Source of the DNA: Candidatus Margulisiibacteriota bacterium
Lineage (GTDB): Bacteria > Margulisbacteria > Marinamargulisbacteria > JBFWNS01
Length of the DNA stretch: 64,000 bases
Reading direction: 5' to 3'
Assembly: GCA_050250935.1 (NCBI GenBank)
Contig: JBFWNS010000002.1
Location: forward strand, 225,673 to 289,672
The notes beneath the pieces were generated by a model. It made no database searches. It was not told the origin of the DNA and saw nothing but the letters and a program-made list of their open reading frames with translations. Below are positions 4,262-51,357 of this stretch, in pieces. The first letter of the stretch is position 1. Every line of letters starts with the position of its first letter. The position numbers and the translations under genes were made by a program.

Positions 4262-4328
4262 GATCTCCAGACTATAGCATTTCTCCCCCAAGTTCTGGTA
4301 GACTATTGCAACTTTCTACCGTACCCGT

Positions 4329-4499: not shown

Positions 4500-4523
4500 A
4501 AAGTTGGGGTTCAGACTCTTTGC

Positions 4524-21524: not shown

Positions 21525-21548
21525 CCCCTACCCTACAAGGAGATTCTG

Positions 21549-33872: not shown

Positions 33873-34252
33873 GGGGGTGTAAAGGTTTCGACGGGATTGA
33901 TCTTTCACTTCAGGCGCGCGTCGAGGAGCTGCCCGGCCTCGTAAAAAGGCAGAAAACAATATCTGGCAAAGTACATACTTTCCCAGGCGCGGCCGTTTAC
34001 GGTCACGCTTCAGCCCAAGCCGCTTAATTAAGTAACTTGGCCCGGCCTGTGGCGTTGGCCCGCAGGATTCGGACAACAGTCAACTCGCCGCTGTTGGGAT
34101 GATCTGACAACAGCCGGTTAAATCACCAGATCTCGCCTGGTTTGATCCTGTTTTTGGGAGCTTACCAAGTTAAATTAAATCAAAAACTACACGCGTAGGG
34201 CCTGTTGCGGCAGCAGTTTCGGACACCGGTTCAACTCCGGTCACCTCCACCA
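33873..34252 (+). ncRNA. ssrA: tmRNA; tag reading frame 33965-34027 (GKVHTFPGAAVYGHASAQAA*)
   Basis: 5' GGGGGTGTAAAGGTTTCGAC, 3' GACACCGGTTCAACTCCGGTCACCTCCACCA, G3-U wobble in the acceptor stem, tag ending AA-stop. Confidence 0.95.
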
Positions 34253-35815
34253 TAATTCGTTTTGGGCGAATTCTTCGTTTAGTTTTGCCTGTTTTAGCCT
34301 CGGATTCTTGGCGAAAACAGGTTCTAATTTGGATATAATTGATTTGGCTTCTGGGGCCATAGCTTTTATGAGGCTTAAGGGCTCGTTGAGCTCAACACGC
34401 AAGGTTCTTTCCGCTAAAAAGAGGTTCGAACCTAGGGCTTGAAGGATTCGGCGTTTTTCTTCGTGGGTGCCGATTTCAAATCGGGTTTTGGCTGTTTTGG
34501 CGAAGATGAATAACTCCTCTGCTCTTGTGATCCAGGTATCAATTCTGGTTTGGGTGTCTTCAAGGATTTCTTTTAATCTACATTTTTCTTCCATTAACTC
34601 GTTTTTGCGCTTGATGTAGTCGTCTGCATCGAGTTCGTTATTTAGCCTCATGGATAATAGAGTTTCTAGCTTTCGGTTGCAGAGGCTGAGATTGTCTTGA
34701 TGAACTTGGATAATATCGTGATTGTTGGTTTCCTCTTTTAGCTTATCTTCTTTAAGCGTTTTGATGGCCCATTGATGGAAGTCATCGGGGATGTGGATGC
34801 TTTCCAGGATGTCGGCCATTTGGGCTTCTAAAACTTCTTCCCGGATTGTTTTTTGCGTGCACGTGGGATGCATTTGTTTGGTGCAGTGGTAATAGGTGTA
34901 ATGGTGAATGTTTCCGTTTTTCTGGTTTTTGGTCTTTTTCTCGGCTGTAATCGCGGCTCCACATTCTCCACAACGCATTAGCCCAGTGTAGGAAAAGGTG
35001 CGGTGATGGGGTCTGGATTTAAGCTTTCCAGAGATAATGTCTTGGGCTAAATCAAATTCTTGTTTAGTGAGCATGGGCTCGTGTTTGCCTTCGTATAGTT
35101 CGTCGTTCCATAAGAAGTGGCCGTAATAGAATGGGTTTTTGAAGAGGGCGTAGAATTGGCTTTCGACGATCTTTTTTCCGTTGGGCATTCGGAGGCCCAT
35201 GTCGGTTGCGATGGTGCGGAGTTGTTCGACAGTTACTTTTTTATCGATGAGGATTTGCCAGCATTTTTTTAGGATTAGGAATCGAAGTGGGTCGGGATAA
35301 ATTGGGGGCTTATCTGTATCGTGATATTTGTTGTTGAGGTAACCGAGTGGCGGTTTGTGGGGAAGCCAGCCTTCGGCGAGTTTTTGGCGTTGTCCGCGTT
35401 TAATGTTGAGGCTTAGGTCGATGATGTATTGGTTGGCCATACCGAATTCTAAGTTCATCATGAGGACGTTATCGGTTGGGTAATAGCTGCGTTGGTAGGT
35501 TTGGATGTGTTGGATGATGCCTTGTTGGAGCATCCAGGAGATGCTGCCGCCGTCTATTGGGTTTCGGGCGAGACGGTCTAGTTTCCAGCAGAGGATTCCG
35601 TTGGCTTCGCCGTTGTGGATTCGGCCTAGCATTTCGGCGAAGATGGGTCGGCCCGGGGCTTTGGCGGATTTTTCTTCGATAAAGATATCTGCGATTTGTA
35701 GGTTGTTGAGTTTGGCTAGTTTTTTGAGTTCTTCGATTTGGGCAGGAATGGAGGCTACTTGGCGGTCTTCGCCTTCGGAGGATTTGCGGGTGTAGAGGAA
35801 GTAATGAATAGTCAT
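34241..35815 (-). CDS. Large serine recombinase (resolvase + recombinase + zinc ribbon + coiled coil)
   Basis: YTRKSS catalytic Ser, WKLDRLARN, CGECG/YYHC; stop codon lies inside the tmRNA 3' end. Confidence 0.93.
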   Translation of the reverse strand: MTIHYFLYTRKSSEGEDRQVASIPAQIEELKKLAKLNNLQIADIFIEEKSAKAPGRPIFAEMLGRIHNGEANGILCWKLDRLARNPIDGGSISWMLQQGIIQHIQTYQRSYYPTDNVLMMNLEFGMANQYIIDLSLNIKRGQRQKLAEGWLPHKPPLGYLNNKYHDTDKPPIYPDPLRFLILKKCWQILIDKKVTVEQLRTIATDMGLRMPNGKKIVESQFYALFKNPFYYGHFLWNDELYEGKHEPMLTKQEFDLAQDIISGKLKSRPHHRTFSYTGLMRCGECGAAITAEKKTKNQKNGNIHHYTYYHCTKQMHPTCTQKTIREEVLEAQMADILESIHIPDDFHQWAIKTLKEDKLKEETNNHDIIQVHQDNLSLCNRKLETLLSMRLNNELDADDYIKRKNELMEEKCRLKEILEDTQTRIDTWITRAEELFIFAKTAKTRFEIGTHEEKRRILQALGSNLFLAERTLRVELNEPLSLIKAMAPEAKSIISKLEPVFAKNPRLKQAKLNEEFAQNELWWR

Positions 35816-36522
35816 AGCTTTATACCTTTTATCCAGCGTTTTGCAATTGGTATTACTTGTTTAAGTTTAAGTAATTCGGACCGTCGGTATAGTCTGTAAT
35901 TATTCCCTGGCTTGCGAACTGCAGTTAATATCCCGTCTTTGTCCCAATTTCTCAAAGTTTGTTTTGTTACTCCAAGCAGTTCAGAGGCTTCTTTAATTGT
36001 TAAACATTCGTTTAGAAATTCCCCATCAACTTTATACGCTAATATCCGGCCATTTTTTTCATGATAGCCTAAGGCTGTTCGCTCATCCCATTTTCTAATA
36101 AGGGTTTCAGGAATTTTGTCATACAAGTTTCTCCAAATTTTTTGGAGTGGCATAAATGTGTCTTGTCCAATTTCATTCGCGCCGTGAACACTTGGGAACC
36201 TTTGCTCACAGAATCTATCCAAAACCTTAATAAATTCAGAGTCGCCATCCACTAAGCTTATTTCTGCATCACTGCATAGCTGGACAAGATTATGTGTTTT
36301 GATACAGCGTTTTTTTGATTCTAAAGCAATAGCTTTTAGCAGCAATTCGATAGCAAGATGCCCAAGGTAGATAGCCGAATCTAAATAAGAAAATTTATAC
36401 TCTTCGCTTACTCGATTTACTAAACAGATAGAACTTGCATAATGATCCTTTGCGAAATGCAAAAACTCTAACGCTTCGTATCCTTCTTCATTTTTTAAAT
36501 AGGTTATTTTATTTTTACTCAT
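35812..36522 (-). CDS. HEPN-domain protein fused to a C-terminal MerR-type HTH
   Basis: HLAIELLLKAI...THNL (HEPN-like) plus LTIKEASELLGVTKQTLRNWDK...NNYRLY. Confidence 0.72.
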   Translation of the reverse strand: MSKNKITYLKNEEGYEALEFLHFAKDHYASSICLVNRVSEEYKFSYLDSAIYLGHLAIELLLKAIALESKKRCIKTHNLVQLCSDAEISLVDGDSEFIKVLDRFCEQRFPSVHGANEIGQDTFMPLQKIWRNLYDKIPETLIRKWDERTALGYHEKNGRILAYKVDGEFLNECLTIKEASELLGVTKQTLRNWDKDGILTAVRKPGNNYRLYRRSELLKLKQVIPIAKRWIKGIKL

Positions 36523-36552
36523 ATCGCATAAGATTATAAAATTTTATAATGT

Positions 36553-37444
36553 TTAGATGTTAGTTCTAGATTGAATTTCCTTCAAGAGTGCCGCAGTAGA
36601 AACAGATTTTAAGCTTTCAACTTGTTCTTCTGTTTTCTGGAAGTTCATCTTGGATACAATTTCATTTACTCGACTGACATCTAGGTAGCCATAAGAAAAC
36701 AAAGTTTTGCTCTGAACATTGTGTGACCTTGGTTCTTGGAAATAAAGGAGCCGTATCGTCAAATAGCTTGGTAGTTCTTAGCATTTCCTGCCATTCCAAA
36801 ATGTAGCCAAGCAAGGTCTCATCGAACCTAAACAGAGTGGTCATAATCTGCTTCGAAAATTTGGTTTTCACGCCATCTTTTGGGGACTGAAAAACCTCAA
36901 GTGTATGGGGATTAAAACATTTTAATGGGAGACTAAGAATAGCAAATACTCGCATCCCACTAAGAAAATGGAAGGCAATCAAAGCCCGGTCGCGGAGATC
37001 AACTTCGGTCTTGATCTCGATTGAGGCGCAAAGCTTTTTCACATAAAAAACTGTGGGGTATTTAACTGGTCGAATACTTTTGGCAATGCGAGATTGTTGT
37101 TTATCCAAGCTAAGAAGCTGAACATCAAAGACGCTCACCCTCGACTTGTATCCGGGCTGGCCAGAAAGCCAAAGAAAAAAGGATTTTACATGCCTGAGGT
37201 AGTGATACTGGCTGACTAGAGATAAAGCCTTACCTTGGTGGGTTTGTCTCGATAACCAAGACTTAAATTCTTTGGCCTGCTTTTGATTAAATGCTGCATA
37301 GTCGGCTTCTTTAGAAAACGCCTCAAATTTCCACAACGACTTTTCTACTTCATAAATGGTTTTATCCGAATAGCCTTGGGCCTCTTTTAGCCATTGAAGA
37401 TGCCGCCGCTTTATTTTTTCATTTTTGGCTTTGAATTTGGTCAT
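36553..37444 (-). pseudogene. Tyrosine recombinase with internal deletion/frameshift
   Basis: RDRALIAF..LSGMR and KTK are present but HxxR is missing; the TLFSYGYL C-terminal piece is in another frame (36553-36762). Confidence 0.65.
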
Positions 37445-37772
37445 TTTTTGCACTCCATCATGATGGGGCTTAGTGTCAGTCCATACGAGAGGATTGCAGG
37501 TCTGGAATAATAGTCTGTTACGAATCGTAAACACGATAGCTGTGAAGCATTCCATCGACGATTTAATCTCTGTTTTTTTGTCTCAATCTTTATCATTGTT
37601 TTATCCTCCGAAAACGAAATGGAGTGGCATTCGAGCGCGCCACTTTTTGACCCCTCCAAGCTCAAAAATCATCAAAAAAAACGAAACGAAATGAATTTTT
37701 TTGTGCACCCAAACATTGTTTTTCGCGGTCCCGTATAACCCGCAACCCATACCCCCTGCGGAAGGACCCGTG

Positions 37773-38213
37773 CTAGTTGGAGAGTGCCATTTGAGTTTGG
37801 GATTTCTCATGGATTGGCTCCCCTTTTAAAAGTGTGATGCTGCTAAGGCGAAAGACATTTCTGTGGCACAGTGGGCATGCCCCGGTCCTTACTACAGATT
37901 CTTTATTGCCACCCAATGTCTTGTGATTGGAGTATGTGGTTTGATTCATTGGAACAACCGCTTTGCGACATCCAAGGCAATAACACTCATCTGGACCCAA
38001 AGTTACCCTACGTTGCAGTTCTTTCTGTCTGATATACGCCTTTGCATCCTTGCCTAGAATTAGGAAGGGATTGCAGGTACCTTCGATAATAGGCAAGCCA
38101 TTTCGGTACCAATCTTGGACCGTTCGGATGTGCACACCTAAAGCATTGGCTAATTCTTTTGGGGAATAGGACCGTTTATCTCGGATGGCTTGGAGTCGAA
38201 GGTTCTTTGGCAT
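37773..38213 (-). CDS. HTH DNA-binding protein with C-terminal zinc finger
   Basis: YSPKELANALGVHIRTVQDW; CLGC...CPLC. Confidence 0.75.
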   Translation of the reverse strand: MPKNLRLQAIRDKRSYSPKELANALGVHIRTVQDWYRNGLPIIEGTCNPFLILGKDAKAYIRQKELQRRVTLGPDECYCLGCRKAVVPMNQTTYSNHKTLGGNKESVVRTGACPLCHRNVFRLSSITLLKGEPIHEKSQTQMALSN

Positions 38214-38367
38214 AATCAGGTTTCATTTTCATAGTGGGTTCTAAGACAGCTTTGTAGAGTCGGAGCAAGCTGGTGGCTTTTTCAAATGCTTCTTTATCGG
38301 ACAACGTTATTCCGTAATGTTGTTGATACAGTTGCTTGAATTCAGCAATGGCTTGCTGGGACGGCAT
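38176..38367 (-). CDS. Small hypothetical protein of integrated elements
   Basis: SQQAIAEFKQLYQQHYGITLSDKEA helical pattern; in series with neighbours. Confidence 0.6.
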   Translation of the reverse strand: MPSQQAIAEFKQLYQQHYGITLSDKEAFEKATSLLRLYKAVLEPTMKMKPDYAKEPSTPSHPR

Positions 38368-38370
38368 GGT

Positions 38371-38628
38371 TTATCTGGCAGAGTCGCTGTAGAGGCGGCT
38401 TTTTATGAATTTTAGGCTGTCGAATATAGTGTGGGGATTGAGGAGTAGGTCTTGCTTCCAGTAGGCGGTGACGTCGGATTCTAGTTTCTGGGATCGTTGG
38501 AATAGGAATTGGGAGCGGTTACCTTCGGTTTTTTGGATTTTTTCGAGGGGATGGCCTAGGGCGACTATACAGGCGGTGAGGTTGAGATCGAATGTTGAAA
38601 AACAATCGGTTTGGGTGTTCATATGCAT
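38371..38628 (-). CDS. DUF5659-like small protein
   Basis: STFDLNLTACIVALG...FLF...YW...KFIKSRLY pattern; RBS AAGGAG. Confidence 0.6.
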   Translation of the reverse strand: MHMNTQTDCFSTFDLNLTACIVALGHPLEKIQKTEGNRSQFLFQRSQKLESDVTAYWKQDLLLNPHTIFDSLKFIKSRLYSDSAR

Positions 38629-38754
38629 TCTCCTTTTTCATTTGCCGAATACGGCTATGAAATGATTAAAGGAGATTTTGAGCAGTTTGCAGTGCCCAGA
38701 AGATTAGGAATTTAGGCAGGAATTTTTTCTACAATCTCGGACATTTCAGACATT

Positions 38755-39735
38755 TTATATCCGAAAAAGTTGATAGTACCCTCGGTTATCATGGAGAAAA
38801 AGTTGCTTGAATAATGGATGTTGAACTGTTTTCTTATTTTCTGTTCTCCTAAAAATTTCTCGAAGTTTGGGACGATGGGAACCAATGGCTTCTGTAATTT
38901 CAGTTTGCGGAATCCATTGCTTACCTAGCTTGTACTCTTGAACCATGTAAGCCAGTGCTTTAGTTTGATTTGGGCTAAAAACTTCAGATAATTGGCTTCC
39001 ATCTGAATAAAATACCTGGATATTTTTAAACTGATTATCAAAGGTGTAAGACTGAATATTTCGTGCCTTTAGAGGTTCAGTGGTTTTAGCATTTTGGAGC
39101 CCAAGTTTTTCTAAAGTCTGTCTCTTTTTTATGATTGTTTGTCGTCTTGCTTCAATTTTTTGGATAAGTTTGGGATTCCAGTCTTCTTCAAATGTTCGAA
39201 TAACACGATTAGATTTTTCGATCACTGAATTCAGTTGGTAAAGTGTTGACTCAATCTGATCGATTTCGTGGTCCGAAAAAAGTAGCATAATAACGTTTTG
39301 GCTACATGAATGACTTGTAAAACCTGTTCCAGCCCAATTGATTTTTGGATCATATTTTCTTGCATCTTCAACGTTATGAACCTCTGCCAAAATTTTGGGT
39401 ATGTTGTGGATAAACTTATTGGGGCAGTAGAACAGCGTAGACATTGTACCAATTAGAGGAATATGAATATCTGTCATGCTATTGTCGTCATAATCTATGA
39501 ATGAGGTGTATACCGGTTTCAAAAGCTCGATTGTTGTCAATTCAACGGTCTTTATTGCTCGAAGCACTTCATCGCTTTGCTTCTCAACTATATACTCGTC
39601 TGGCAGTCGATTAAGTTCTCGCCCTTCATAGCATTCGTATGCGGATTCTAGCCATTCTTCTAAGGATTTTGCAGATCTTGAAAAGGTCTCAATAAATAGA
39701 GGGATTTTACGACCAAAGGTGCGGTGATCTTTCAT
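38755..39735 (-). CDS. Hypothetical protein, possible C-terminal winged helix
   Basis: Coiled coil then FSPNQTKAL...EITEAIGS...RGYYQL. Confidence 0.65.
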   Translation of the reverse strand: MKDHRTFGRKIPLFIETFSRSAKSLEEWLESAYECYEGRELNRLPDEYIVEKQSDEVLRAIKTVELTTIELLKPVYTSFIDYDDNSMTDIHIPLIGTMSTLFYCPNKFIHNIPKILAEVHNVEDARKYDPKINWAGTGFTSHSCSQNVIMLLFSDHEIDQIESTLYQLNSVIEKSNRVIRTFEEDWNPKLIQKIEARRQTIIKKRQTLEKLGLQNAKTTEPLKARNIQSYTFDNQFKNIQVFYSDGSQLSEVFSPNQTKALAYMVQEYKLGKQWIPQTEITEAIGSHRPKLREIFRRTENKKTVQHPLFKQLFLHDNRGYYQLFRI

Positions 39736-39738
39736 ATC

Positions 39739-40797
39739 TCATCCCAGCTTATTCTTTTCGGTTTGATCAAGGAGACGATGCCGAGCAATTTCAATAGCCT
39801 GGTGGAGCTTAGTTTGCAGAACATCTTTCGAGGGCAATTGAGTTAAATATTCTGCAACACGAATATTACTTTTATCCAACTGCATAAGCTCAATATGTTC
39901 CTTATTTTTACCAGCACATAAAATCAGCCCGATCGGCTGGTTTTCTCCTGAAACCATCTCATGTTTTTCGAGGTATCGAAGATATAGTTCCATTTGGCCC
40001 TTGAAACCAGCCTCAAATTCTCCAATCTTCAGATCAATAGCCACCAAACATTTTAGGCGTCGGTGATAAAATAATAGGTCAATGTAATAGTCTCGATTGT
40101 CTATTGAAATACGCTTTTGTCTTGCTAAAAAGGCAAAATCTTGCCCCAATTCGATGATAAATCGTTCTAGCTCATGGATGATCGAGGACTCCAAATCTTT
40201 TTCAGAATAGGTGTCCGACAGCCCTAAAAAATCCAGAAAATAAGGATCTCGAAAGACAATGTCTGAAGAAGGTTCTTTTTGCTCTCGAAGTACCTGAAGG
40301 TCTTGGCTTATCGTCTTGTCTGGTTTTTTGGAAATTGCGGTACGTTCGTATAGCATAGATTGAATACGTTCTTGTAGTTGTCGGGAAGACCAGTTTTCTA
40401 GTTTGCAAAGCTCGATGTAGAAACTGCGTTTGAGTTCGTCTTCTATGGGTAAAAGCAACCTCAAATGGGACCAACTCAATTTTGCACACACTGTGTTCAG
40501 AATCTGCTTTTCAGGAAAAATATCGGCAAATTTTAAGCAGTAATGCAGTTGCCGTTCACTCCAACCTTTCCCGAATTCCTCAGTCAAACGTTGGGATAAT
40601 GTGGCGATTACTTGTTTACCGTACTCGGCACGGTCTGAGTTTAAGATATCCTGACGGATATGCTGGCCAATAGCCCAGTACAAGGCTACCAATTCCTGAT
40701 TGATTGTTGATGCAACTCGGGTACGGGCATGCGTAATGAGATCGCGGATTTGGGTAAAAAGAGGGTAGCTATTCTCTTTTGAAATATTATTGTTCAT
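39739..40797 (-). CDS. YhcG/DUF1016 PD-(D/E)XK nuclease-domain protein
   Basis: LYWAIG, LSWSH, RDPYFLDFL, IDLLFYHRRLKCLVAIDLK, GQMELYL. Confidence 0.92.
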   Translation of the reverse strand: MNNNISKENSYPLFTQIRDLITHARTRVASTINQELVALYWAIGQHIRQDILNSDRAEYGKQVIATLSQRLTEEFGKGWSERQLHYCLKFADIFPEKQILNTVCAKLSWSHLRLLLPIEDELKRSFYIELCKLENWSSRQLQERIQSMLYERTAISKKPDKTISQDLQVLREQKEPSSDIVFRDPYFLDFLGLSDTYSEKDLESSIIHELERFIIELGQDFAFLARQKRISIDNRDYYIDLLFYHRRLKCLVAIDLKIGEFEAGFKGQMELYLRYLEKHEMVSGENQPIGLILCAGKNKEHIELMQLDKSNIRVAEYLTQLPSKDVLQTKLHQAIEIARHRLLDQTEKNKLG

Positions 40798-41737
40798 TTT
40801 CTGACTCCATTTGATCAAAAAGCTCGGGCTGATGAAAAATCGGGATTCCAATAATTTTTAGCTTCGGTTTTTGGTAAAGCGACTTTCGAAGAATTTCTGC
40901 TTTAAAAACAATGTCTTTACCATAAAATCGCAGGTAATCATCAGAAGCATGATCGTCATCTGGATAGCCCACCAATAATGAATATTCTTTCTCTATGCCA
41001 TGTACACGTATGCTTAAAGAATCCCCTTTTGATTTTTGAAGGCCAACAAGTTTTCCCGTCAAATCCACCGTTTGGCCATTTTGATATTGAGGAAGTATCC
41101 GGGCATCTTCCGGTAAATAATTTTCAAAATTTTGAGATGTGATTTCTGAAAAATGGTCGAAATTCCGTTCAGGTGATATCTGAATACTACGGAGTTCATC
41201 TTCAACAAATGGCTTCAGCGCCTTTTTAAAAACTTTATCTTTGTTAATCATTCGGTATAGTGCTTTGGCATAGGTTTTTTCAGGTAAGTCTTCGCCTTTA
41301 TCATCACTTATTTGAATGCTTTTCTTTTGTCGTTTGGCATATTCAATGATTTTCGATACAAACCACCCAATCAATGCACAATCTAAAGGGTATTTTGCAA
41401 CCAAATCATTTACAGTTTCATGAATACTCTTAAAATCTGAAAAACCATTTATGATCTGTGCATAGATATCTGGGTTTGCGACCTTATAAAAGACCAGCAT
41501 ATCTTGGATCGAGACAAACGGCAGTTCTGTAGAAATTTTGAGAGCTATTTCAACAACAATTGAACCAGGCGCTAAATTTTTTGCCTTAACTTCCAAATTT
41601 CCATCGATTTTTGAAATCTTGAAGCACTCTTTAATGACCTTTTCAAACCCAATTAAGGATGTGCCTAGCAATTGGAGGTCTATATCTGATTGGGGTTGAG
41701 GAGTATATTTGATAAAAAGGTTAGGCGACGTCGTCAT
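40787..41737 (-). CDS. Hypothetical protein in the defence operon
   Basis: 316 aa ORF overlapping both neighbours; PGSIVVEI motif. Confidence 0.7.
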   Translation of the reverse strand: MTTSPNLFIKYTPQPQSDIDLQLLGTSLIGFEKVIKECFKISKIDGNLEVKAKNLAPGSIVVEIALKISTELPFVSIQDMLVFYKVANPDIYAQIINGFSDFKSIHETVNDLVAKYPLDCALIGWFVSKIIEYAKRQKKSIQISDDKGEDLPEKTYAKALYRMINKDKVFKKALKPFVEDELRSIQISPERNFDHFSEITSQNFENYLPEDARILPQYQNGQTVDLTGKLVGLQKSKGDSLSIRVHGIEKEYSLLVGYPDDDHASDDYLRFYGKDIVFKAEILRKSLYQKPKLKIIGIPIFHQPELFDQMESENEQ

Positions 41738-42723
41738 GAAGTTGGCTTCTTTGAATAGTGTTTATCGAATTCTTTTAGAATATCAGGGCAATAAAACCAC
41801 TGTTTAACACCCGTCTTATTATTCCAATCAAGGTGCCGCTCGCCACAAAAATTTGGGTCTTTTTTCAATTGGCTTATAATATTTCTAAACGCCCCATCTT
41901 GCTTAAAATCTGTATATCGTTTCTTTAGCTCTGGCAAAAGTTTCGCTTTCCAAGACCAACGATATTTATTTTGAAATTTTTCCTCTGAATCGATAGTTAT
42001 AGATGCGCCGGTTCCATCTTTTGTATGATGGACTGGCAAACCCGTCGTTTTCCTTGAGAACTGAATATCGACCGTCAATGAAATGGAATGCTTGTTTTCG
42101 TCTCCGTTATACTCTTTTTCTTGGACATCGAGATATTCTAATAACTTTCTGTGATTTGAAGATTCCTTTGCCAAAGCGGTTGCATCAAAATGGGGCGGGA
42201 TATCAAATGCCATGGGAATCAAAAATAAATTATGATCCGATGTAGATCGATCAAACCACTCTCCCAACATTTCAACATAACTTTTGAGTGTAGCTGTTCC
42301 AACCTCAAGTAGCTTTTTATCAAACAACTTACTTTCATTATAAAAATGGATGGCGTTATCACGTATTTCAATCAGAGTTTCAAGTTGCGCAGTTAAATCT
42401 TTTGGCAAGCTAAGTTTGGCCATCGCACCACAAATGTCGATGGTAAAAAAGTTACCTGAACGGTTTTCCTTGTATCTTGGTTTTTTGTAGGGAGTCCCAT
42501 CATTTTTCTTTTTTGTAGCATCAACAATATAAAGCGCTGCCATTTCCTGGTTGGAGTCATTTACGATTTTCGCTTTCAGAAGCAGTTCCCAGGCATTGAC
42601 AATCAAAATGGTAAAACTCTCTTCTCGGTAAGAAAAATTAGGTTTGTTGTACAATTCAATGGCAGAAAGCGCGGCTTGAATCGATTTGTCCAATAGCAAA
42701 TCACTCTTGGCCTTGCGTCCCAT
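41734..42723 (-). CDS. DUF3644 protein (HEPN-like)
   Basis: KSIQAALSAIELYNKP, NAWELLLKA, RDNAIH (RxxxxH). Confidence 0.8.
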   Translation of the reverse strand: MGRKAKSDLLLDKSIQAALSAIELYNKPNFSYREESFTILIVNAWELLLKAKIVNDSNQEMAALYIVDATKKKNDGTPYKKPRYKENRSGNFFTIDICGAMAKLSLPKDLTAQLETLIEIRDNAIHFYNESKLFDKKLLEVGTATLKSYVEMLGEWFDRSTSDHNLFLIPMAFDIPPHFDATALAKESSNHRKLLEYLDVQEKEYNGDENKHSISLTVDIQFSRKTTGLPVHHTKDGTGASITIDSEEKFQNKYRWSWKAKLLPELKKRYTDFKQDGAFRNIISQLKKDPNFCGERHLDWNNKTGVKQWFYCPDILKEFDKHYSKKPTS

Positions 42724-43343
42724 TAGTTACTTTCCTTAGCTTCGATAGTAAAAGTTTTTACGGGTTCTCTCTTTAAGTCACTTGGTAAAAAAGCATCGAT
42801 TTCTGCATCAGAAAAAGTGAGATCCTCGTATTTTTTCAAAGCCTGCTGGGCTTTTTTATATGCTTTGAAGGTTGTGCTTGGTGCACCGGTATATGCAGTG
42901 TGTAATTGCTGAACCAATACATCACGTTTTTCTATAATTTCCTCTAACGATTTGCTCTCCATTTTTAAGTCTGTTAGTAGGGATAGATACTTTTCTCTAA
43001 CAAGCCATAATTCATTCGCTGTTTGCTTGTGTTTTTGAGCTAATTCGCCTAAATCATAATCCTTTGTATACGCATTTAGTGTTAGGAGGATTGTAGAAAT
43101 AACAATTCCAATTAACCCGGCAACTCTGCCTTCTCCAAAAATAGCGGCAACGAAACCCGCTGCCGTTATAGACGAAAGAATAATCTGCCACAGTTTAATA
43201 CTCGCAGATCGAGCTAAAAGAATATCAGCACATTTTTCATGAGTCTTGTGAGAGTAAACCACTCGCCCATAACATTCGCGAAGCTGCCCTTCCAAAACCT
43301 GCATATTATGTTCAACGTTGTTAATTTGGGAATGTGGTTCCAA
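42723..43343 (-). CDS. SLATT-domain 2TM effector (CBASS-associated)
   Basis: QLRECYGRVVYSHKTHEK, two TM helices, LWLVREKYLSLLTD; TTG start overlapping the cyclase stop. Confidence 0.82.
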   Translation of the reverse strand: MEPHSQINNVEHNMQVLEGQLRECYGRVVYSHKTHEKCADILLARSASIKLWQIILSSITAAGFVAAIFGEGRVAGLIGIVISTILLTLNAYTKDYDLGELAQKHKQTANELWLVREKYLSLLTDLKMESKSLEEIIEKRDVLVQQLHTAYTGAPSTTFKAYKKAQQALKKYEDLTFSDAEIDAFLPSDLKREPVKTFTIEAKESN

Positions 43344-44202
43344 AGATTTCCCTCCATTTAGACTTTGCAGAATATTCTCTTTTTGGGTCAGCAGATTCAT
43401 GTGCAATTGCTTCCAGCGCTAGGTTGTAACACTGCTTTGCCTTGTACTGAAAAAGCTCTTTTCCATTAACACGCTGCCCGCTACCAGGGGCGAGCCAATA
43501 TTCTTGATCGCGACTTTGATTAGCCATCCATTCGAAGAAGTCTCGACACATGTAGTCATAGTACAGATATGATTTATCACGGTGAGTCCAATTCCCTATA
43601 AATTGATATGCGAGGGCGTCTATTAACAACCCTCCAATAGGCACGCCCCACTGGTTTTTCCAGGCTCGCATCATCCGGCAAAGGGGTATAAGGTTCCGAT
43701 TGCAAGCACTATTACGATCTCGAATTGCTTGGATTTCAGGTCGTGGATTAGTCGTTTTCCAAGTGCCTCCATTGTTAGAACATGGATGAATATACCCACC
43801 GGATTGACTCAAAAAAACTGGAACTATTTCAAATGTTATTCCATCTTGGAAACTCACACTAACAACTTGGCCGTCTCCTGATATATCTGAGGTTGAATAT
43901 GTTTTCTTCATAGATGTCCGCACAACCTGTAACAAGGACGACTGCCCATTCCCATAGTAGTCGTTGTATTGACTATATAAATTCGCTGGCAATTCAAACA
44001 CCATATCGAGATCGCTAAAACCTTGGATTGCCGTATTTCGTCCATAAGAGCCAACACACAAGCTATGAGAAGTTTCAGAATCTGTATCCCAAAAATCAGA
44101 ATTGAGCTGTCTCGTTATTCGTTTATAACGATAAGAAATGGTGCCTCCATCTTGTACTTGCAGGGTTGAACAAAAAGTTGAAAACCAATCTGCGACACTC
44201 AT
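43321..44202 (-). CDS. SMODS/CD-NTase nucleotide cyclase
   Basis: VGSYGRNTAI...SDLD, DGQVV, FEIVP, WKTTNP, KWREIFG..FP. Confidence 0.88.
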   Translation of the reverse strand: MSVADWFSTFCSTLQVQDGGTISYRYKRITRQLNSDFWDTDSETSHSLCVGSYGRNTAIQGFSDLDMVFELPANLYSQYNDYYGNGQSSLLQVVRTSMKKTYSTSDISGDGQVVSVSFQDGITFEIVPVFLSQSGGYIHPCSNNGGTWKTTNPRPEIQAIRDRNSACNRNLIPLCRMMRAWKNQWGVPIGGLLIDALAYQFIGNWTHRDKSYLYYDYMCRDFFEWMANQSRDQEYWLAPGSGQRVNGKELFQYKAKQCYNLALEAIAHESADPKREYSAKSKWREIFGTTFPN

Positions 44203-47200
44203 TGTTTTCTTCCCTCCACGATCGCAATTTCTTCATCCGTTAGACCATAGAACTGGTAGACGAGTTGGTTGATTTGGGATTCAAGTTTTGGGACGTTGGG
44301 GCTGGTTGGGTTTGATAGGATTTCTTTCACTAACACTGTTATCTTCTCTTGATCTTCTTCAGAAACTATAGGTAATGGAATTTGATCCATATATTGCTTT
44401 TTAAATCTTAGAGTAGCTCCACGCACAGATGATGTAATGCGGATAAAGAAAAATTCAATTAATTTTGAATTCAGGAGACCTACTAAAAAATAATCGCCTA
44501 ACGGTATAAAAAAAGCAGTCATATCTAAAAGAAATTGTTCTCTATCAAGATAAAATCTGGGACTAGGGGATAAATCAGGGACAATAATTTTAGGCTCACC
44601 AAAGAGTTCTATATAACCATCAGCAGGATTGTTATCTAATTCCAGCCAGTGATGCTGCCTTGTTCCCGGCTTATTAGGTAATCCTTCACATTGTCCACGA
44701 GCTCGAAGCTTAGTTTCATATTTACTTAGGTGATTGTGAATCGCGAAATATTGTTTCAAATTCAAGTGAAAACCTTTTGGAATACATATCAAGTAAAGAT
44801 TAGTAGGTTTAATAACCCACCTTTTTATATCTTTTCCACGTAGCCAAGGTTTGATCAGCTCTTTACTTCTGGGATCTGTTGCAATGAGCTCCTCTTTTGT
44901 TTTCTCATCGATTACAAATGCATCATTAAACCCTGTTTTAATTCCAGAATAGATTTTCTTTCCTTTCAACTTAAGCATTTGGCTTAGAGTGCTGCCTGAT
45001 TTTTTAAGTTTATGCAATAAATCTAAGAAATCGGGCTTATCAAATACCCAAGTATCATCTGTAAAATCATTTATAAGAATATCAATGCCATTAGCTTTTA
45101 TTGTTTCTGAAAGATTTCTAATGTCAGAAATGTTTTCGATAGAAACACAGGTTGCATAAGAATTTTGAAATTTCTGTTTTTTACCACCAATAAATACAGA
45201 TGGGTATGCAGTTGCATCAAATATCGGCAATTCACCGAAATCCACAATCACTTTTGGCAAGCATTTTTCGACTAAATATTGCCGAAGTTTTTTTCCATAC
45301 CCTGCTCGGAAATATTTATTTGATGTTATGTAACACAATCCCCCCTCGCTTTTAAGAAGATTGATTCCTTTTTCATAAAATAAGCAGTACAAATCACCCC
45401 TAGCTGAAAAAACAGAGTAGATTTTTTTCCAGATTCTTTGTTCAGGAGTACCTGAAAACTTCTCTATTGAAACATACGGCGGATTCCCAATCACCACATC
45501 AAACCCGCCATTCTCCCGAAACACTTCACTAAAATAAATCTCAAAATCAAAGACTTCCGATTGACCAGTCAATTCATTGATCAAATTATCGATTTTGGTT
45601 TTTAGATTGGCTTTTTTGGAAGGGCTGGTTTCGTCAAAATATAGCGCTTTTTGTTTCTCTAAATCTTCAAACAAATGGTTGTTAAATAGGTTCCGTTCCA
45701 CCTGTAACAATGAATTCCCAACCCTAATCTTATACTCCAAATTCGGCAAAGGCTTAATAGTTCCAAAATCATCTTCATCCACGACCAATGACAACCACAA
45801 CCGCAATTTGGCAATATCCACGGCTGATGTCTCAATATCTACACCATAAATCGATTCCTGAATCGCATGACGTTTAAAATCGTAAAGTGTTCTATCTGGT
45901 TCATTGATAAAGGGGGTTAGTGCACATCGCACCCGTACAATTTCATTCATCATGCCTACCGGGAAAGCCCCAGACCCAATCGCCGGATCACAAATTTTGA
46001 TATGTGCCAGTGCATCATCGATTACTTTAGCGTTATTACGAATACTTTCAGGCAGTTTCGGCTTATAGTCTTTAGTGTAGCTTCCTTTTTCGAGATTTTT
46101 TGATTCTGCCGTTCTATTATGCTCAATAGCAGTGTCCCCTTCATGAACCAAGGCTTCAATATCACTACGCGAAATAGAATTTCCTGCAATTTTGGTTTCC
46201 AGATAATTAATCAAACTTTCTTGGCACATGTAGTGCACAATTTCACGCGGCGTATAATAGGTACCACTCCCTTTACGCTCGTTTTCCGGGATCAGGTTTT
46301 CAAATACTTTCCCTAGCATTTCAGGATCGACCGCCACCTCTTTATCGAGCGGCTCATCTTCTCGTACCGTAAAATTGTACAAATCAAAAACCTCAAAAAT
46401 ATCTTTGAAGATATCGTTATCCAGCAAAATATCCGTATTTACCCAATCGTATGCACGAATAGGTTCGAACAAACCCCCGTTTAAAAACGGAATTTTGCTA
46501 TTGAATCGTTGATAAAAATGATCAGCTCGCTCTGTCGCTAAGGCTTCATAAAAAAGTGGCTCCAGCATGTCATTAAAGAAATTTTGATAGTTACTTTTTT
46601 GCTCGTATAGGTGTTGCAAAAATTCTTTGGGTCCGCTTCCCCAATTTTGCCCTTTGGCCACACCCAACCATCCCTTTTTCTGAAGAAAGTATAAAAACAC
46701 AATTTGGCCTAACAAACGTTTTGCAAAATCACCTGTTTTTACGCCTTTTGAATCAAATTCTTTTTGAACAACGGAATCTTTTTCAATATGTTTATCTAAG
46801 GCTTCTTTTAATCGCAAATAAAGCGTTTTGTATTGGGTGAAAAACTCTTTGGTAACGGTTTCGATATTGAAGGCACTCTCGAGCTCTGAGAGAGTTGTTT
46901 CAGTTTCCGAAACTAAAACCGGCAACAATTGCTTTCTAGCTGTATGTGTTTTTTCATTTTGGCCAACAAGAAATGAATACCGTCTAGCAGGAGTTAATTC
47001 TTTTTTAACCTTTTGTTGCTCCGCATCTAGCACGTAATCCATCTTAATAAGCGAAAATCGCCAGTCGTTTGACTGATCCGTATAGAATGCCACTAACGCT
47101 GCATCTTTAAGCTGCCCACCGCGACTACCGTTTAAGTAGCGTGCGATAAAATTACGTTGCAGAGTGCGGGCATTTTCAAGTTGCCCCTTTGTTTTTAGCT

Positions 47201-47432
47201 TAACAGCCAGGACATCAATTTCACGGTTTTCAGGGTCCATAAATTTAGCTAAGCGTTTAAATGAGACAATGTGATCTCGAAAGGATTCGGGGATATGGTT
47301 ACCGGTAGCTGCATTTTCATCCAGGGATTCATAGTCAATGAACAGTTGTTGAACAACTCCGCGAAATTGAGTTTCATCATAGGGCTTTGTAAAACAGTCA
47401 TTGACTAGTTTTTCAGCATCTTGTTTTTTCAT
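44199..47432 (-). CDS. Type IIG restriction-modification enzyme (Eco57I-like N6-adenine MTase with target recognition domain)
   Basis: DPEMLGKVFE, YYTPREIV, DPAIGSGAF, VIGNPPY, GIKTG, LLNSKL. Confidence 0.9.
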   Translation of the reverse strand: MKKQDAEKLVNDCFTKPYDETQFRGVVQQLFIDYESLDENAATGNHIPESFRDHIVSFKRLAKFMDPENREIDVLAVKLKTKGQLENARTLQRNFIARYLNGSRGGQLKDAALVAFYTDQSNDWRFSLIKMDYVLDAEQQKVKKELTPARRYSFLVGQNEKTHTARKQLLPVLVSETETTLSELESAFNIETVTKEFFTQYKTLYLRLKEALDKHIEKDSVVQKEFDSKGVKTGDFAKRLLGQIVFLYFLQKKGWLGVAKGQNWGSGPKEFLQHLYEQKSNYQNFFNDMLEPLFYEALATERADHFYQRFNSKIPFLNGGLFEPIRAYDWVNTDILLDNDIFKDIFEVFDLYNFTVREDEPLDKEVAVDPEMLGKVFENLIPENERKGSGTYYTPREIVHYMCQESLINYLETKIAGNSISRSDIEALVHEGDTAIEHNRTAESKNLEKGSYTKDYKPKLPESIRNNAKVIDDALAHIKICDPAIGSGAFPVGMMNEIVRVRCALTPFINEPDRTLYDFKRHAIQESIYGVDIETSAVDIAKLRLWLSLVVDEDDFGTIKPLPNLEYKIRVGNSLLQVERNLFNNHLFEDLEKQKALYFDETSPSKKANLKTKIDNLINELTGQSEVFDFEIYFSEVFRENGGFDVVIGNPPYVSIEKFSGTPEQRIWKKIYSVFSARGDLYCLFYEKGINLLKSEGGLCYITSNKYFRAGYGKKLRQYLVEKCLPKVIVDFGELPIFDATAYPSVFIGGKKQKFQNSYATCVSIENISDIRNLSETIKANGIDILINDFTDDTWVFDKPDFLDLLHKLKKSGSTLSQMLKLKGKKIYSGIKTGFNDAFVIDEKTKEELIATDPRSKELIKPWLRGKDIKRWVIKPTNLYLICIPKGFHLNLKQYFAIHNHLSKYETKLRARGQCEGLPNKPGTRQHHWLELDNNPADGYIELFGEPKIIVPDLSPSPRFYLDREQFLLDMTAFFIPLGDYFLVGLLNSKLIEFFFIRITSSVRGATLRFKKQYMDQIPLPIVSEEDQEKITVLVKEILSNPTSPNVPKLESQINQLVYQFYGLTDEEIAIVEGRKQ

Positions 47433-50400
47433 TGTGTAGTATCTCCTACAAAGTAAACAGATAAAATGATTTCTCGCTTGTCGCTATGATCTTTTTTGGG
47501 CTGAAGAGATGATAAGTCAGATTCTGAAAGATGTTGTTTTAAGCAATGAAGAATAGCCAATGGTTGTAGATTCTGTTGCAATGCCGCTTTAACTTTTTTA
47601 CAGGTATTTTTGGCGATTATGCCATTTTCAAGTGCATTTCGGACTTGGCTTAAATACGATTCGTCATCCTCAGTAAACCCTTTAAATGCCCGAATGGCAG
47701 ACGACTTTAGGGTTCGAATGATAAATGCTTCATTCGAGGAGCCAGTTTTTGGAATATTTAAATCAATGGGGTCTACTTGGGTAATCTCATCCAGAAATGA
47801 CTTGTTGACTTTTAACAGCGTATAAAAGTGATTGGGGATGGGTAATGAGGTTATATCGGGTTTGCATTCAAACCGTTTTGCGGCTTCTATAAAAGATAAC
47901 TCGCGCGAAACCTTATCGTCCGCAACAGTAAACTTCTTTAAGCGTCCTTTTCTAAAAAAAGTGAGTAGCCCGTGATCTTCACTAGCTCTCGCACAACGTG
48001 CCTTTTTAGGTAAGCGTTTAACGCTTTCAAACACATCTGGCGATTTGTCTCGAATATTACGGATGACTTGTAAATATCTCAGTTCAGAATCGGGTTCATC
48101 TTCCTGCTCAAAGGTATGTTTGTCATTTAGCTTTCTGAACAATCGATCGCCAAAGAGTTCATGGGTAGATATTTCTTCTTCCTCACTTAAATACTTAGAA
48201 TCTTCCCCGAGAATAGTATGAAACGCTTGTAGCTTACCCTTAATGTTGTCTTCTAAGCCCAAATGAGCATCTGATTGGGCGGTTGGGAAAAAGTTAAATA
48301 CATAGATGGTGTCGTGCTGGGTACCAACACGATTAACCCGCCCGACTCGCTGTAATACCCGTGTTGGGTTCCAGGGCAAATCGTAATTGATAATAATATG
48401 AGACCGATGAAGATTAATCCCTTCTGCTAATACGTCAGTTGTTATTAGAATGCGAATGTCGTCTTTTGAATTTGCAATTCCTGGTTGATAATTGGCTCTA
48501 ATAACTTCTCTGAGAGTTTCTTTTTGATGAGATTCTCCGGCGGCCATGCCACCATGACTAGAGTATGAAAGCACTTGATGTGGAAATTCTGCTTCTAATG
48601 TTTCATACAAATAATGAACAGTTTCCTTAGATTCGCTAAATACAATTACTTTTTTGTTTTGGAGAGTGGGATTACTTCTTAATTCGTTGATAAAATGCTC
48701 AATTTTGGGGTCTGATTGCACATTCTTCCAATAGGTAGATATTTGATTTAATAGCGCCAAGTCCATCTGAAGTTTTTCACGAAATTCAGGATAAAAATCT
48801 TCCGAAGTATATTGCTGGGCCTTTTCTTCTTCTACCAATTTCAGGAGTGCGTCTTCATCATCAGCGTCCAATAATTCATAGACATCCACGTCTTTACTGA
48901 TCCAAACCGTTCCTTTATCCAACATAGCGATAAATTGTTCATACGATAAAGTAAAACGGCGCAGTGTCTTACGAAATGCGTAAAAGCTGCTTTCCAAGCG
49001 TTTCACCAAAATCCCTTTCATAAATCCACCAATATTTTTTTGGCTGATTTGATCAAATGAGCTAATAGGTTTTTTCAGAAATAGAAGTGGGGTATATCGG
49101 GCATATGAAAATTGAGTTAGCAGCTCGATGGTCTTATCAAATACAGACTCAGTTGCAGAATCGAAGGCATAAACAATGCGTTGTGGATCAGCCATTTTCG
49201 GAAAAGTCAGGCCTTGTTTCTTAATGTCAGTCTCAAAAAACTGTTTAATCTCAGATCTGGTTCGCCGAACCATCACATGCTTCAAAACCTGATCTCGTAT
49301 TTTTCCAGAGACTTTTTTTAACTCCGCAAAATACTCATCTGTACCTTTTTCAAATTGATTAACATCCCGTTGGAGTCCTTTAAAAAAGGCTTCTAAGTTT
49401 CGAATACCCGGAATTAAACTGTTTTTAGCAGGCTGAAACAATTTGATTTGGGCTAAAATATCCTCAATCTTATTATTAAGTGGGGTAGCAGAAACCAAAA
49501 TAACTTTCTTTCCAAGGCATATCTTGTGCAAGGCTTCATAACTTTTAGTCATTTCATTTCTGAATCTGTGCGCCTCATCAACCACGATATATGTATATTT
49601 GTCGGTGCCTTTTTCTAGGATCCGATCTAATTTGCCTAGAGATTCAATTTCAAACCCAGGAACATAAAATTGGTTCAATGTTTCTCGCCAGTAATCGGCC
49701 AAGACAGGGGGACATATAATCAACTTCCTGCCGGTTGGTAATTTTTGTAGTAAGAGTGCGGTTATAAATGTTTTACCTAATCCCACCACATCTGATAAAA
49801 ACACTCCATTATAGAGATCTAAAATACGCTTCGCAGATATTACAGCTTGCTTTTGGTATGACAAATCCATAAAACCATCTGGAAGATTAAGCTCAATATC
49901 CTCTTCCAAATTTATATCTTCTTTAAAGTATTCATATAAAAACTTTAAATACACTTGATAGGGTGTGATCTGGTCATTCAACCAGGTTTTTGTGTGAATT
50001 GTTTCGATATATTCAGCATGGATATCAATACCTTCCTGCCACAATATTTCAAATTGATCCAATGCAAAAACTACATCTGTTTTGTCTTTTAGCTCAACGT
50101 TAAATTCGCGCTGTGCGATCAATCCAGATTCTGAAAAATTGCTAGAACCGGTAATGACTCTACCGAAATCTATAAAGCCCTCAGGATGTCGGGTGATATA
50201 GACTTTGGCATGTAGGTTTCGGCTTGGATGAACACGTAATTCCAATTTTCCAGATTGGATAAATTCAATAAATTTTCGGGCTGCTATTTCAACATCTGGG
50301 GAATCTTCTGATGTATCCATTTCTTGAGTAAGCGTTTCAACATATACCTCTTTACACCGTTTGTGAGATTCAAAATCAAAAGCCACTTGCCCGGACGCTT

Positions 50401-50626
50401 TTTCAAACAACAGAACGCTTTTACGATCCGTACTCAATCCAATCAGAATCCGGATTTTCTCAGTGCTTTCCAAGGCCTTCCAGAGCCGATTAAATCCGCT
50501 TGTTCTGAAATATCCCACCAAGACATCAAAGAATTGTGCATATTTGAGCGTCGACACAAATCGATCATGCAAAGAGTTGGATTCAGTATTTGTAAAAAAT
50601 TTAAGATCTTTGGAAGGTGTGCTCAT
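47429..50626 (-). CDS. PLD-nuclease-SNF2 helicase fusion
   Basis: LHAKVY...GSSNFS (PLD), DVVGLGKT, DEAH, SATP, TDVLAEGINL, QRVGRVNR. Confidence 0.9.
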   Translation of the reverse strand: MSTPSKDLKFFTNTESNSLHDRFVSTLKYAQFFDVLVGYFRTSGFNRLWKALESTEKIRILIGLSTDRKSVLLFEKASGQVAFDFESHKRCKEVYVETLTQEMDTSEDSPDVEIAARKFIEFIQSGKLELRVHPSRNLHAKVYITRHPEGFIDFGRVITGSSNFSESGLIAQREFNVELKDKTDVVFALDQFEILWQEGIDIHAEYIETIHTKTWLNDQITPYQVYLKFLYEYFKEDINLEEDIELNLPDGFMDLSYQKQAVISAKRILDLYNGVFLSDVVGLGKTFITALLLQKLPTGRKLIICPPVLADYWRETLNQFYVPGFEIESLGKLDRILEKGTDKYTYIVVDEAHRFRNEMTKSYEALHKICLGKKVILVSATPLNNKIEDILAQIKLFQPAKNSLIPGIRNLEAFFKGLQRDVNQFEKGTDEYFAELKKVSGKIRDQVLKHVMVRRTRSEIKQFFETDIKKQGLTFPKMADPQRIVYAFDSATESVFDKTIELLTQFSYARYTPLLFLKKPISSFDQISQKNIGGFMKGILVKRLESSFYAFRKTLRRFTLSYEQFIAMLDKGTVWISKDVDVYELLDADDEDALLKLVEEEKAQQYTSEDFYPEFREKLQMDLALLNQISTYWKNVQSDPKIEHFINELRSNPTLQNKKVIVFSESKETVHYLYETLEAEFPHQVLSYSSHGGMAAGESHQKETLREVIRANYQPGIANSKDDIRILITTDVLAEGINLHRSHIIINYDLPWNPTRVLQRVGRVNRVGTQHDTIYVFNFFPTAQSDAHLGLEDNIKGKLQAFHTILGEDSKYLSEEEEISTHELFGDRLFRKLNDKHTFEQEDEPDSELRYLQVIRNIRDKSPDVFESVKRLPKKARCARASEDHGLLTFFRKGRLKKFTVADDKVSRELSFIEAAKRFECKPDITSLPIPNHFYTLLKVNKSFLDEITQVDPIDLNIPKTGSSNEAFIIRTLKSSAIRAFKGFTEDDESYLSQVRNALENGIIAKNTCKKVKAALQQNLQPLAILHCLKQHLSESDLSSLQPKKDHSDKREIILSVYFVGDTTQ

Positions 50627-50826
50627 GCTTTAGTGTTTTCCTCAATCCATCGATCAATATCTTTTTTACGAAAGCGCCATGTCCCACCTATTTTAAATCC
50701 TGGAATTTTACCGCTAGCTGCTAATCGATAAGCTGTTTTTTCATTAAGTTTTAAATATGCAGCGACATCCTTAACAGTAAGGATATCCGTATCAATTGGT
50801 GGGTTATGACTCTTCTTTTTAGGCAT
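50623..50826 (-). CDS. Excisionase-type HTH DNA-binding protein
   Basis: LTVKDVAAYLKL..KTAYRL..GKIPGFKIGGTWRF. Confidence 0.88.
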   Translation of the reverse strand: MPKKKSHNPPIDTDILTVKDVAAYLKLNEKTAYRLAASGKIPGFKIGGTWRFRKKDIDRWIEENTKA

Positions 50827-51047
50827 ATTTGAGAATTTACAGGAAAATTAAGGAATAATCAATTTTGCGGGGTTCCCAACTCTAAATTCACCTAACTAAA
50901 AAGAGTATGTGCAAAAATTGCACCAACCGATTGGCAGATGAATTTGGCTACAGTCTCTGTTAGATTCCAATGCAATTAAAAATCAAACAACTCTAAATAA
51001 AGGCGACCGATTCCCAACGAAATAAGTTCTAATCTGGCTTAAGTAGG

Positions 51048-51148
51048 TCCACCAAATTAAGCTGTGCTTAATTTGGTGGAAGGATTTGAATCACAAAAAT
51101 GCCATTTTTGTGGGTCGTTGGTTGAAACAAGTTCAACCATCTCCCGCT
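51048..51148 (+). repeat. att repeat followed by the three-hairpin element (original tmRNA 3' flank)
   Basis: TCCACCAAATTAAGC-TGT-GCTTAATTTGGTGGA perfect 15 bp stem, then a core shared with 4442-4470. Confidence 0.75.
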
Positions 51149-51357
51149 GCGCGGCTTTGGGTGGGCGGACACGGGTAGGGGTTATGGGTTTTGGCAATGG
51201 ATTTGTTTAACCCTTATCCGACCACACCGCCATCTCTTGACCAGAAGGGATCTTGAAATGAAAGCGTCTTCCGCCAGGGAACTGAAAAATTTTTCGGACA
51301 ATGGGGCGCAGGCTTCTTTGATGTCGTGGTAGACCTGGCATTTAATCAAAAATAATT

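Follow-up and report, generated by a model that had tools for sequence, protein, structure and literature searches.

A genomic island inserted at the tip of a tmRNA gene splits the gene of its own serine integrase

Introduction

The idea that integration of a mobile element may split its own integrase gene is already in print, for a serine enzyme at ssrA (DsiB), for the Streptococcus ICEs (integrative and conjugative elements) at rumA, and for Mx8. In the ssrA islands of Dehalococcoides (McMurdie et al), the 3′ end of the DsiB gene always overlaps attL, and it was proposed that DsiB may reach its full function only when encoded on the circle or located behind a tandem island (PMC3146451). The att sites of the rumA ICEs lie inside serine integrase genes, and Mx8 is cited in that work (PMC4701971). 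In Mx8, attP is located in int, and integration swaps 112 C-terminal residues for 13 and lowers activity (as cited in PMC4701971 and PMC4383910). In mycobacteriophage integration-dependent immunity, which involves a tyrosine integrase, the repressor is clipped, and the segment removed has been shown to be a degradation tag (PMC9262239). Here, we describe a 16.8 kb defence-gene island that sits in the last bases of the transfer-messenger RNA (tmRNA) gene of a Candidatus Margulisiibacteriota bacterium. The analysed DNA, referred to as the window, comprises 64,000 nt (JBFWNS010000002.1:225,673-289,672), and all coordinates are window positions. The insertion point lies within the island's own integrase gene, so that the enzyme would carry a conserved 21-residue tail only in the free circular state.

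The element is a member of the large serine recombinases (LSRs) and a new form of self-splitting integrase, a kind already known. A preliminary description of this DNA had named SSV-type integrases and repressors as precedents and overlooked the closest ones, namely DsiB, the rumA ICEs, and Mx8.

Results

The integrase gene ends inside the tmRNA gene

The integrase open reading frame (ORF) runs into the tmRNA 3′ end and stops there with ...NELWWR*, as first described; the ORF and the ARAGORN tmRNA call overlap. TCCACCA is present at both island ends, and minus-strand translation of 51054-50983 reads WWTYLSQIRTYFVGNRSPLFRVV*. Computed rejoining of the ends at TCCACCA keeps the frame open, again as proposed, and yields a protein of 544 aa, composed of 523 shared residues and 21 new ones, in which the last residue of the integrated form is swapped for the tail. 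The Trp codon at the junction is the complement of the CCA end. The elements of this arrangement are:

33873..34252, plus strand: tmRNA gene (target; ARAGORN), its last bases supplied by the island P arm
34229..34235, plus strand: tmRNA T-loop word, GTTGAAC on the minus strand; B arm nt 18-24, putative attB zinc-ribbon motif (geometry from PMC3783163)
34246..34252, plus strand: left core TCCACCA; crossover within 34247-34249 from homologs, probably 34247-34248 from motif geometry
34241..35815, minus strand: large serine integrase, integrated form, 524 aa, ending NELWWR*
34321..34327, minus strand: second direct TTAGAAC copy in the integrase gene, read L-E-P, 75 nt before the junction Trp codon
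50983..51047, minus strand: orphan integrase tail exon (21 codons and stop), equal to the attP P′ arm
51026..51032, minus strand: TTAGAAC in the I-R-T codons; P′ arm nt 23-29, putative attP zinc-ribbon motif
51048..51054, plus strand: right core TCCACCA, the displaced native tmRNA 3′ end
51048..51155, plus strand: host tRNA trailer, with a 15-bp hairpin at 51048-51080 that takes in the gene end, followed by a genomic repeat starting at 51083

The right boundary is fixed by the displaced tmRNA trailer and by a relic in a second genome

The 7-bp repeat by itself is at chance level. TCCACCA has 11 copies on the plus strand of the window, with one more inside the island at 49025, and all five downstream copies yield an open tail (15-92 residues). 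Thus, the boundary needed independent proof. A tail profile trained on 11 database proteins places 51054 third among 28,185 window positions; in the same scan, 17 positions have at least 6 nt in common with the junction. The top match of the profile lies inside the helicase ORF, is devoid of core identity, and is regarded as chance. The other TCCACCA copies considered as right end (49025, 53461, 63352, and 63535) show no tail motif, and 49025 falls within the helicase ORF.

Positions 51048-51080 form a perfect 15-bp hairpin with TCCACCA as its base, and a genomic repeat follows 28 nt further on. This repeat occurs within 260 nt of 11 of the 41 t(m)RNA genes of the genome (one borderline, one shared with a neighbour gene), and a hairpin including the gene end together with the repeat is found at six of the 41. 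In its present place, the tmRNA has neither trailer hairpin nor repeat. Consequently, the sequence from 51048 onward is identified as the displaced native trailer. The segment 51110-51138, considered as an inverted remnant of the tail, belongs to the host trailer repeat. Behind t(m)RNA genes, the repeat is often preceded by a hairpin in which the final 5-8 bases of the gene itself are paired. The repeat family is present on G000 C1, C2, C3, C7, and C8 and also has copies away from tRNAs.

The boundary is also marked in a genome of the same class (G019), in which a 5′-deleted integrase relic adjoins the tmRNA, with 89.5% identity across residues 401-524. The far end of the relic, 13.5 kb off, matches window positions 51007-51056 (blastn, 84%, E 1e-8) at the same base and encodes a near-identical tail starting NYLGRIRTFFIGNR. 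Moreover, the GC content is 39.3% within the island versus 49.0% and 47.8% in the flanks, and matching tails are carried by the far ends of homologs as well as by natural proteins and two probably circular contigs. The observation is confirmed and well bounded. Rejoining, homolog far ends, and naturally tailed proteins all bear out the initial claim that attP lies inside the integrase gene and that the two states have different C-termini. No island-free close relative was found, the nearest genomes being only of the same class.

In the G019 relic, a single deletion (C15, ~21222-21700) joins the start of a DUF5659 gene in frame to the last part of the integrase; the relic retains both att ends and a type I restriction-modification-like cargo.

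The integrase shares domain order and fold with characterized large serine integrases

The integrase contains Resolvase, Recombinase, and zinc-ribbon domains in this order, each with a Pfam score over the cut-off. S12, R10, R81, and R84 are conserved, as are the zinc cysteines C282, C285, C311, and C319, and coiled-coil helices span 344-448 in the model of the 524-aa form. For the homolog P0004 (65% identical, 544 aa), the best fold match is SPbeta integrase (E 8.5e-21). Relative to its place in attP, the putative zinc-ribbon motif of attB is shifted 5 bp toward the centre, on one arm per site. The scores for the staphylococcal cassette chromosome recombinase CcrB and for XisF are far below the respective NCBIfam cut-offs (80.7 versus 900 and 86.8 versus 375).

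Relatives enter many tRNA tips and carry tails at their far ends

The family is large: out of 7,999 candidates scored, 5,812 have E values of 1e-50 or better, and a profile recovers 4,037 clusters (50% identity) at 1e-30, more distant LSRs included. Among 120 integrase hits in the fetched loci (the window included, some loci redundant, and with a relaxed tRNA threshold), 78 enter a tRNA or tmRNA call, 12 show the tail pattern, 24 are of other kinds, and six are cut. The targets include tRNAs for Gln, His, Asn, Ser, Gly, Trp, Met, Ala, Arg, Tyr, Asp, and Lys. Hence, the notion of a tmRNA-targeting recombinase holds for this copy but not for the family, whose members sit at many tRNA 3′ tips. 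Targets are mixed across the tree, and the tmRNA integrase of the window is sister to a tRNA-Gln integrase (support 99); the tree is a quick version with long branches, and we draw on it for these two points alone.

Identity at the far end can fall to three bases after the junction Trp codon (G060, G061, and G054), which confines the crossover here to 34247-34249. A W-x7-R-[TN] tail is present in frame in 10 of the 120 closest database proteins, P0004 among them, as judged by eye. When the core codons are omitted from the 11-protein tail profile, 6 of 29 loci have their top hit at a site with at least 6 nt of identity to the core, where 0.007 would be expected. With a broader profile, 27 of 54 loci, against 7 expected, show a top-5 hit that has the three core bases in common, the misses including contigs too short to contain the far end. 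The predicted W-x-RT-x-F-like tail is therefore kept, in far ends as well as in natural proteins, although its R-T pair is fixed at the DNA level (see below). A first reading of the G022 far end (8-nt match, tail cut by a stop) was missed by the DNA rule described below and is not counted.

Two metagenome contigs, L142 and L124, have no tRNA, carry an in-frame tailed gene, and repeat their first bases at the end. The terminal repeat is exact over 127 nt in L142 and comprises 126 nt plus 31 unmatched nt in L124. The integrase of L124 is 64-66% identical, and its tyrosine-recombinase, helix-turn-helix (HTH), and DUF5659 genes follow in the same order across the join. Both contigs are probably circles; the alternative is an assembly of tandem copies. 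Viral contigs returned no locus and then three, one of them a clear relative, and all matches in phage and plasmid collections were below 60% identity (20-28% among the matches listed).

In four relatives (L193 at 2279-5085, G054:C1, G052:C23, and G065:C5), the far end consists of two to five units, each made up of a core and a P′ arm and spaced at 0.6-2.3 kb, with mostly one gene, opposite to the integrase, in every interval. Such arrays resemble an integron-like cassette stack with alternative tails; the window's island has a single site. In L002 (11550-12906; G042:C7) and L061, the tail that the integrase enters is of another type (...[YC]FWEW...A) and lies 1.3 kb short of tRNA-Gln; the cognate tail of this integrase sits at its own far end. 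This chimeric tail probably derives from a small element inserted later in tandem.

The tail-coding arm carries a probable mimic of the tRNA T-loop

The V/I-R-T codons of the tails spell TT[AC]GAAC at nt 23-29 from the junction codon, with I-R-T of this island being TTAGAAC. On the target side, the complement of the tRNA T-loop reads T[CT]GAAC at nt 19-24 in 65 of 65 junctions, which were located using part of the T-loop word. The two words are thereby offset by 5 bp. In 27 far ends picked by protein score alone, similarity to the cognate T-arm likewise peaks at offset 5 (0.46 versus 0.15-0.34). A DNA-only rule (core, 16 nt, TT[AC]GAA), read from the same 48 loci to which it was applied, gives 35 hits versus 2-11 at 12 other spacers (24 of 48 loci); in 12 held-out loci it gives 7 hits versus 0-4, with five loci hit. 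Further, synonymous bases of the motif are fixed: the third-base T in 32 of 37 rows (50% background) and AGA or CGA for Arg in 32 of 37 (43%), the rows including two internal copies and two doubtful tails.

A second, direct copy of the word lies within the gene in 53 of 65 junction regions versus 44 of 1,659 control windows, at exactly -66 in 46 cases and at -75 in this island. Of the 53 genes, 50 translate this copy as L-E-P and three as V-R-T. Held-out junctions contain it in 6 of 14, always at -66. An accessory binding site is the obvious guess for this inner copy. At the canonical distance on the P arm, an inverted motif is weak here (GGCGAAT) and absent from the logo of the 65 junctions.

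In LI integrase, the zinc-ribbon motif occupies bp 16-24 in attP and 11-19 in attB (PMC3783163). A crossover at 34247-34248 puts the outer edges of the present motifs at 24 (attP) and 19 (attB). We infer that the T-loop is what the enzyme recognises and that its word is imitated by the tail-coding arm, which would explain easy target switching. Since the R-T residues spell the probable zinc-ribbon word, they are by themselves no proof of protein function, and part of the tail conservation is due to DNA rather than protein.

Codons outside the motif vary like those of an amphipathic helix

The case for protein selection rests on the remaining codons. In 21 far ends chosen by DNA, thinned to below 70% identity, and considered with the motif excluded, identity over codons 3-7 is 0.55 at the second codon position versus 0.32 at the first and 0.28 at the third, and a stop interrupts two of the 21 versus 6.4 in shuffles (P 0.024). 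The shuffles replace an open-frame comparison against +1 and +2, which was dropped since stops arise in those frames from the motif itself. Across 35 sites, hydrophobic residues occupy tail positions 4, 5, 8, 11, and 12 in 77-100% of cases and positions 6, 7, 9, and 10 in 0-15%. A score for this hydrophobic pattern (5.0 versus 3.1) was defined post hoc and is not used as a test. Codons outside the motif vary as in a selected amphipathic helix.

AlphaFold2 predicts for P0004 a single helix at 509-536, with confidence rising from 60-74 to 89 at 521-530, just past the junction. Prediction of a complex between residues 508-544 and 1-502 of P0004 scores 0.52 versus 0.00 for the best of three controls, with runs agreeing in at least 75% of contacts and a partner pLDDT of 61-63. 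Of 157 solved pairs, 116 attain the mark applied, as do 2 of 215 mismatched ones, and the range up to 0.60 holds 18 of these solved pairs and both mismatches; the prediction provides weak support for docking.

Two Ala/Val residues terminate 11 of 52 distinct tails (RVV here); the corresponding figures are 26 of 1,279 for ORFs of the genome and 1 of 233 for other forms. Because the tails are related, this enrichment is overstated, and the ends give a hint of a degradation tag in a minority of tails among related sequences.

Proposed mechanism and alternative explanations

On the free circle, the gene would encode the 544-aa enzyme, and in the island a 524-aa form without the tail helix, such that insertion would probably lower recombination. 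We regard this proposal as the most likely explanation, at about even odds; a switch, which the preliminary description put forward as one of directionality or stability, is plausible. The gene ends in the tmRNA, and its in-frame tail lies at the far end. The enzyme would find its target via the T-loop word (bp 13-19), and the tail-coding arm would present the mimic 5 bp further out (bp 18-24). Crossover would take place at the two bases just inside CCA, with the codon of Trp522 restoring CCA. In the tail, the codons may serve a double duty, I-R-T as a DNA site and the others by encoding an amphipathic helix for which docking on the enzyme is predicted. The full-length form, produced from the incoming circle, would then be the efficient integrase, and the truncated form would keep a residual activity that suffices for rare excision, as reported for Mx8.

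Several points weigh against this proposal. The 524-aa protein is predicted to fold normally (mean pLDDT 91, 59-77 at the end), and because its catalytic, DNA-binding, and coiled-coil parts are intact, impairment is not required. The docked fragment contains 16 residues common to both forms, so that its weak pass is not specific for the tail, and both the docking and the helix models represent the homolog P0004, not the island's own excised form. Beyond about codon 12, tails diverge in length (12-66 residues) and sequence, and the DNA constraint accounts for their most conserved residues. Moreover, the circle junction and the empty ssrA site suggested for verification did not appear: neither joint is present in the contigs of four sequencing runs, contigs being prone to drop rare forms.

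This DNA constraint also opens the possibility that the tail is a by-product of compact dual coding, open and helical only to give a clean circle-encoded end, with both forms alike. The fixed synonymous bases of the motif and the reading of its internal copy as L-E-P in nearly all genes fit such an origin, and the authors of the DsiB work give a trivial reading as well (PMC3146451). However, the second-position bias and the hydrophobic periodicity persist across integrases of 27-100% identity at no fewer than eight target RNAs, and we consider a mere by-product improbable. Just as improbable, in our assessment, is that the tail sets direction, the tailed form integrating and the tail-less form being biased toward excision without a separate recombination directionality factor (RDF). 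The tail does follow the zinc-ribbon domain, which in SPbeta integrase binds the RDF (PMC11722253). Further, no island ORF is named as an RDF by Pfam or NCBIfam, and the probable circles imply that something excises these elements. Yet RDFs are hard to recognise from sequence, and several small ORFs (38176-38367, 38371-38628, and 35812-36522) could be one. A constitutive excisionase would also destabilise the island, yet most copies found are integrated, and the docking prediction gave no contact map.

The tail could instead act mainly as a degradation tag, which would make the circle-encoded enzyme short-lived and the integrated form stable. The Ala/Val ends described above and the mycobacteriophage repressor (PMC9262239) provide the grounds for this explanation. 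In contrast, such an end is missing from 41 of 52 tails, among them the tail of the closest relic, in G019 (DSFY), and the conserved portion of the tail is its start, not its end; a stability switch is the least probable of these explanations and, in our view, very unlikely. A wider reading can also be drawn up. The clade may read the universal tRNA T-loop as its zinc-ribbon site and retarget among tRNAs and tmRNA via the crossover bases, with the tail exon as both attP arm and a regulatory helix that replaces a directionality factor; integration would make an excision or lock form, and repeated P′ arms would allow some members to stack one-gene cassettes in the manner of an integron. We put this forward tentatively and judge it somewhat unlikely as a whole.

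The island carries predicted defence genes

Between the integrase gene and the tail exon, the island contains:

35812..36522, minus strand: HEPN-like protein with MerR/excisionase-type HTH; its stop overlaps the integrase start
36553..37555, minus strand: tyrosine-recombinase gene of the core module, broken into two frames; the C-terminal part is shorter than in the intact 368-aa L124 copy
37773..38628, minus strand: HTH protein, 63-aa ORF, and DUF5659 protein; the HTH and DUF5659 genes are syntenic in L124
38755..42723, minus strand: cargo with two unassigned ORFs, a DUF1016/YhcG nuclease (PDC-S02), and DUF3644 (PDC-S19)
42723..44202, minus strand: pair of the cyclic oligonucleotide-based antiphage signalling system (CBASS) type, with SMODS oligonucleotide cyclase and SLATT two-transmembrane effector
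44199..50826, minus strand: type IIG-like restriction-modification protein, PLD-SNF2 helicase, and MAD1-like HTH protein

As judged from domain assignments, the cargo is defensive, comprising the CBASS-type pair, the type IIG-like restriction-modification protein with PLD-SNF2 helicase, and the candidates PDC-S02 and PDC-S19. The tyrosine recombinase regularly accompanies the serine integrase, with an intact copy in L124 and a copy also in G065; since it is broken here, this island copy may be ageing. Promoter and terminator scans gave chance-level results.

A 37-nt stretch before the HTH gene (37665-37701) is found again on a further contig from the run that is probably the source, and part of it at G000 C1:39462-39492. 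The tag peptide of the tmRNA, called at 33964-34026, is long and unusual (GKVHTFPGAAVYGHASAQAA). The genome of the island contains three more, distant large serine recombinase genes with 22-25% identity (G000 C1:27624-29009, C4:215-1132, and C15:2172-3089).

Discussion

What is new in the present locus is that a large tRNA-targeting family shares the self-splitting design. As exact att sites and both isoforms are defined, the DsiB hypothesis of 2011 becomes directly testable. Insertion with only 3-7 bp of identity suggests that the clade is easily missed by repeat-based island finders, and as databases hold mostly truncated forms, enzyme mining would clone the protein without its tail. If T-loop recognition is true, it could provide integrases for universally conserved landing sites. 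In the literature outside subscription journals and supplements, including parts of PMC12884075, PMC13626063, PMC10083194, and PMC12424338, no publication was found on the tRNA-tip clade, its tail, or its T-loop mimic; the supplements of the DsiB, TIGER, and LSR-survey papers might list such islands.

DsiB is the closest counterpart. Like DsiB (~540 aa), the present enzyme is a serine integrase encoded next to ssrA on the reverse strand, with a 3′ end overlapping attL. In contrast to DsiB islands, which insert at the T-loop with a 20-bp repeat, the island sits at the 3′ tip with a 7-bp repeat, and its clade moves among many tRNAs. The six-gene module of DsiB islands (DsiA, ParB, Mom, and a tRNA-like locus) has no member among the island ORFs scanned, and the parts of the DsiB description considered (PMC3146451) mention no conserved tail or T-loop mimic. 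Module and insertion site, as described there, set this island apart from the DsiB islands. The rumA ICEs have a protein-coding target and are conjugative, whereas this island uses a tmRNA or tRNA tip and has no conjugation genes among the ORFs scanned.

With Mx8- and SSV-type split integrases, the island shares the location of attP inside the integrase gene. These are tyrosine recombinases, whereas the present integrase belongs to the serine family, and the segment replaced in Mx8 is much longer than the tail of this island. Domain order, fold, and the 5-bp inward position of the attB zinc-ribbon motif relate the enzyme to LI/A118 integrase and SPbeta SprA (PMC3783163 and PMC11722253). Unlike in LI and SPbeta, the motif is found on only one arm per site, and the gene contains a further direct copy 66-75 nt inward. 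The match of the family profile to LI ends at position 481 of 534; thus, the C-terminal extension with the swapped tail is without counterpart in that match. As in mycobacteriophage immunity, integration into a tRNA gene removes a C-terminal segment of a protein encoded by the element, here from the serine integrase itself.

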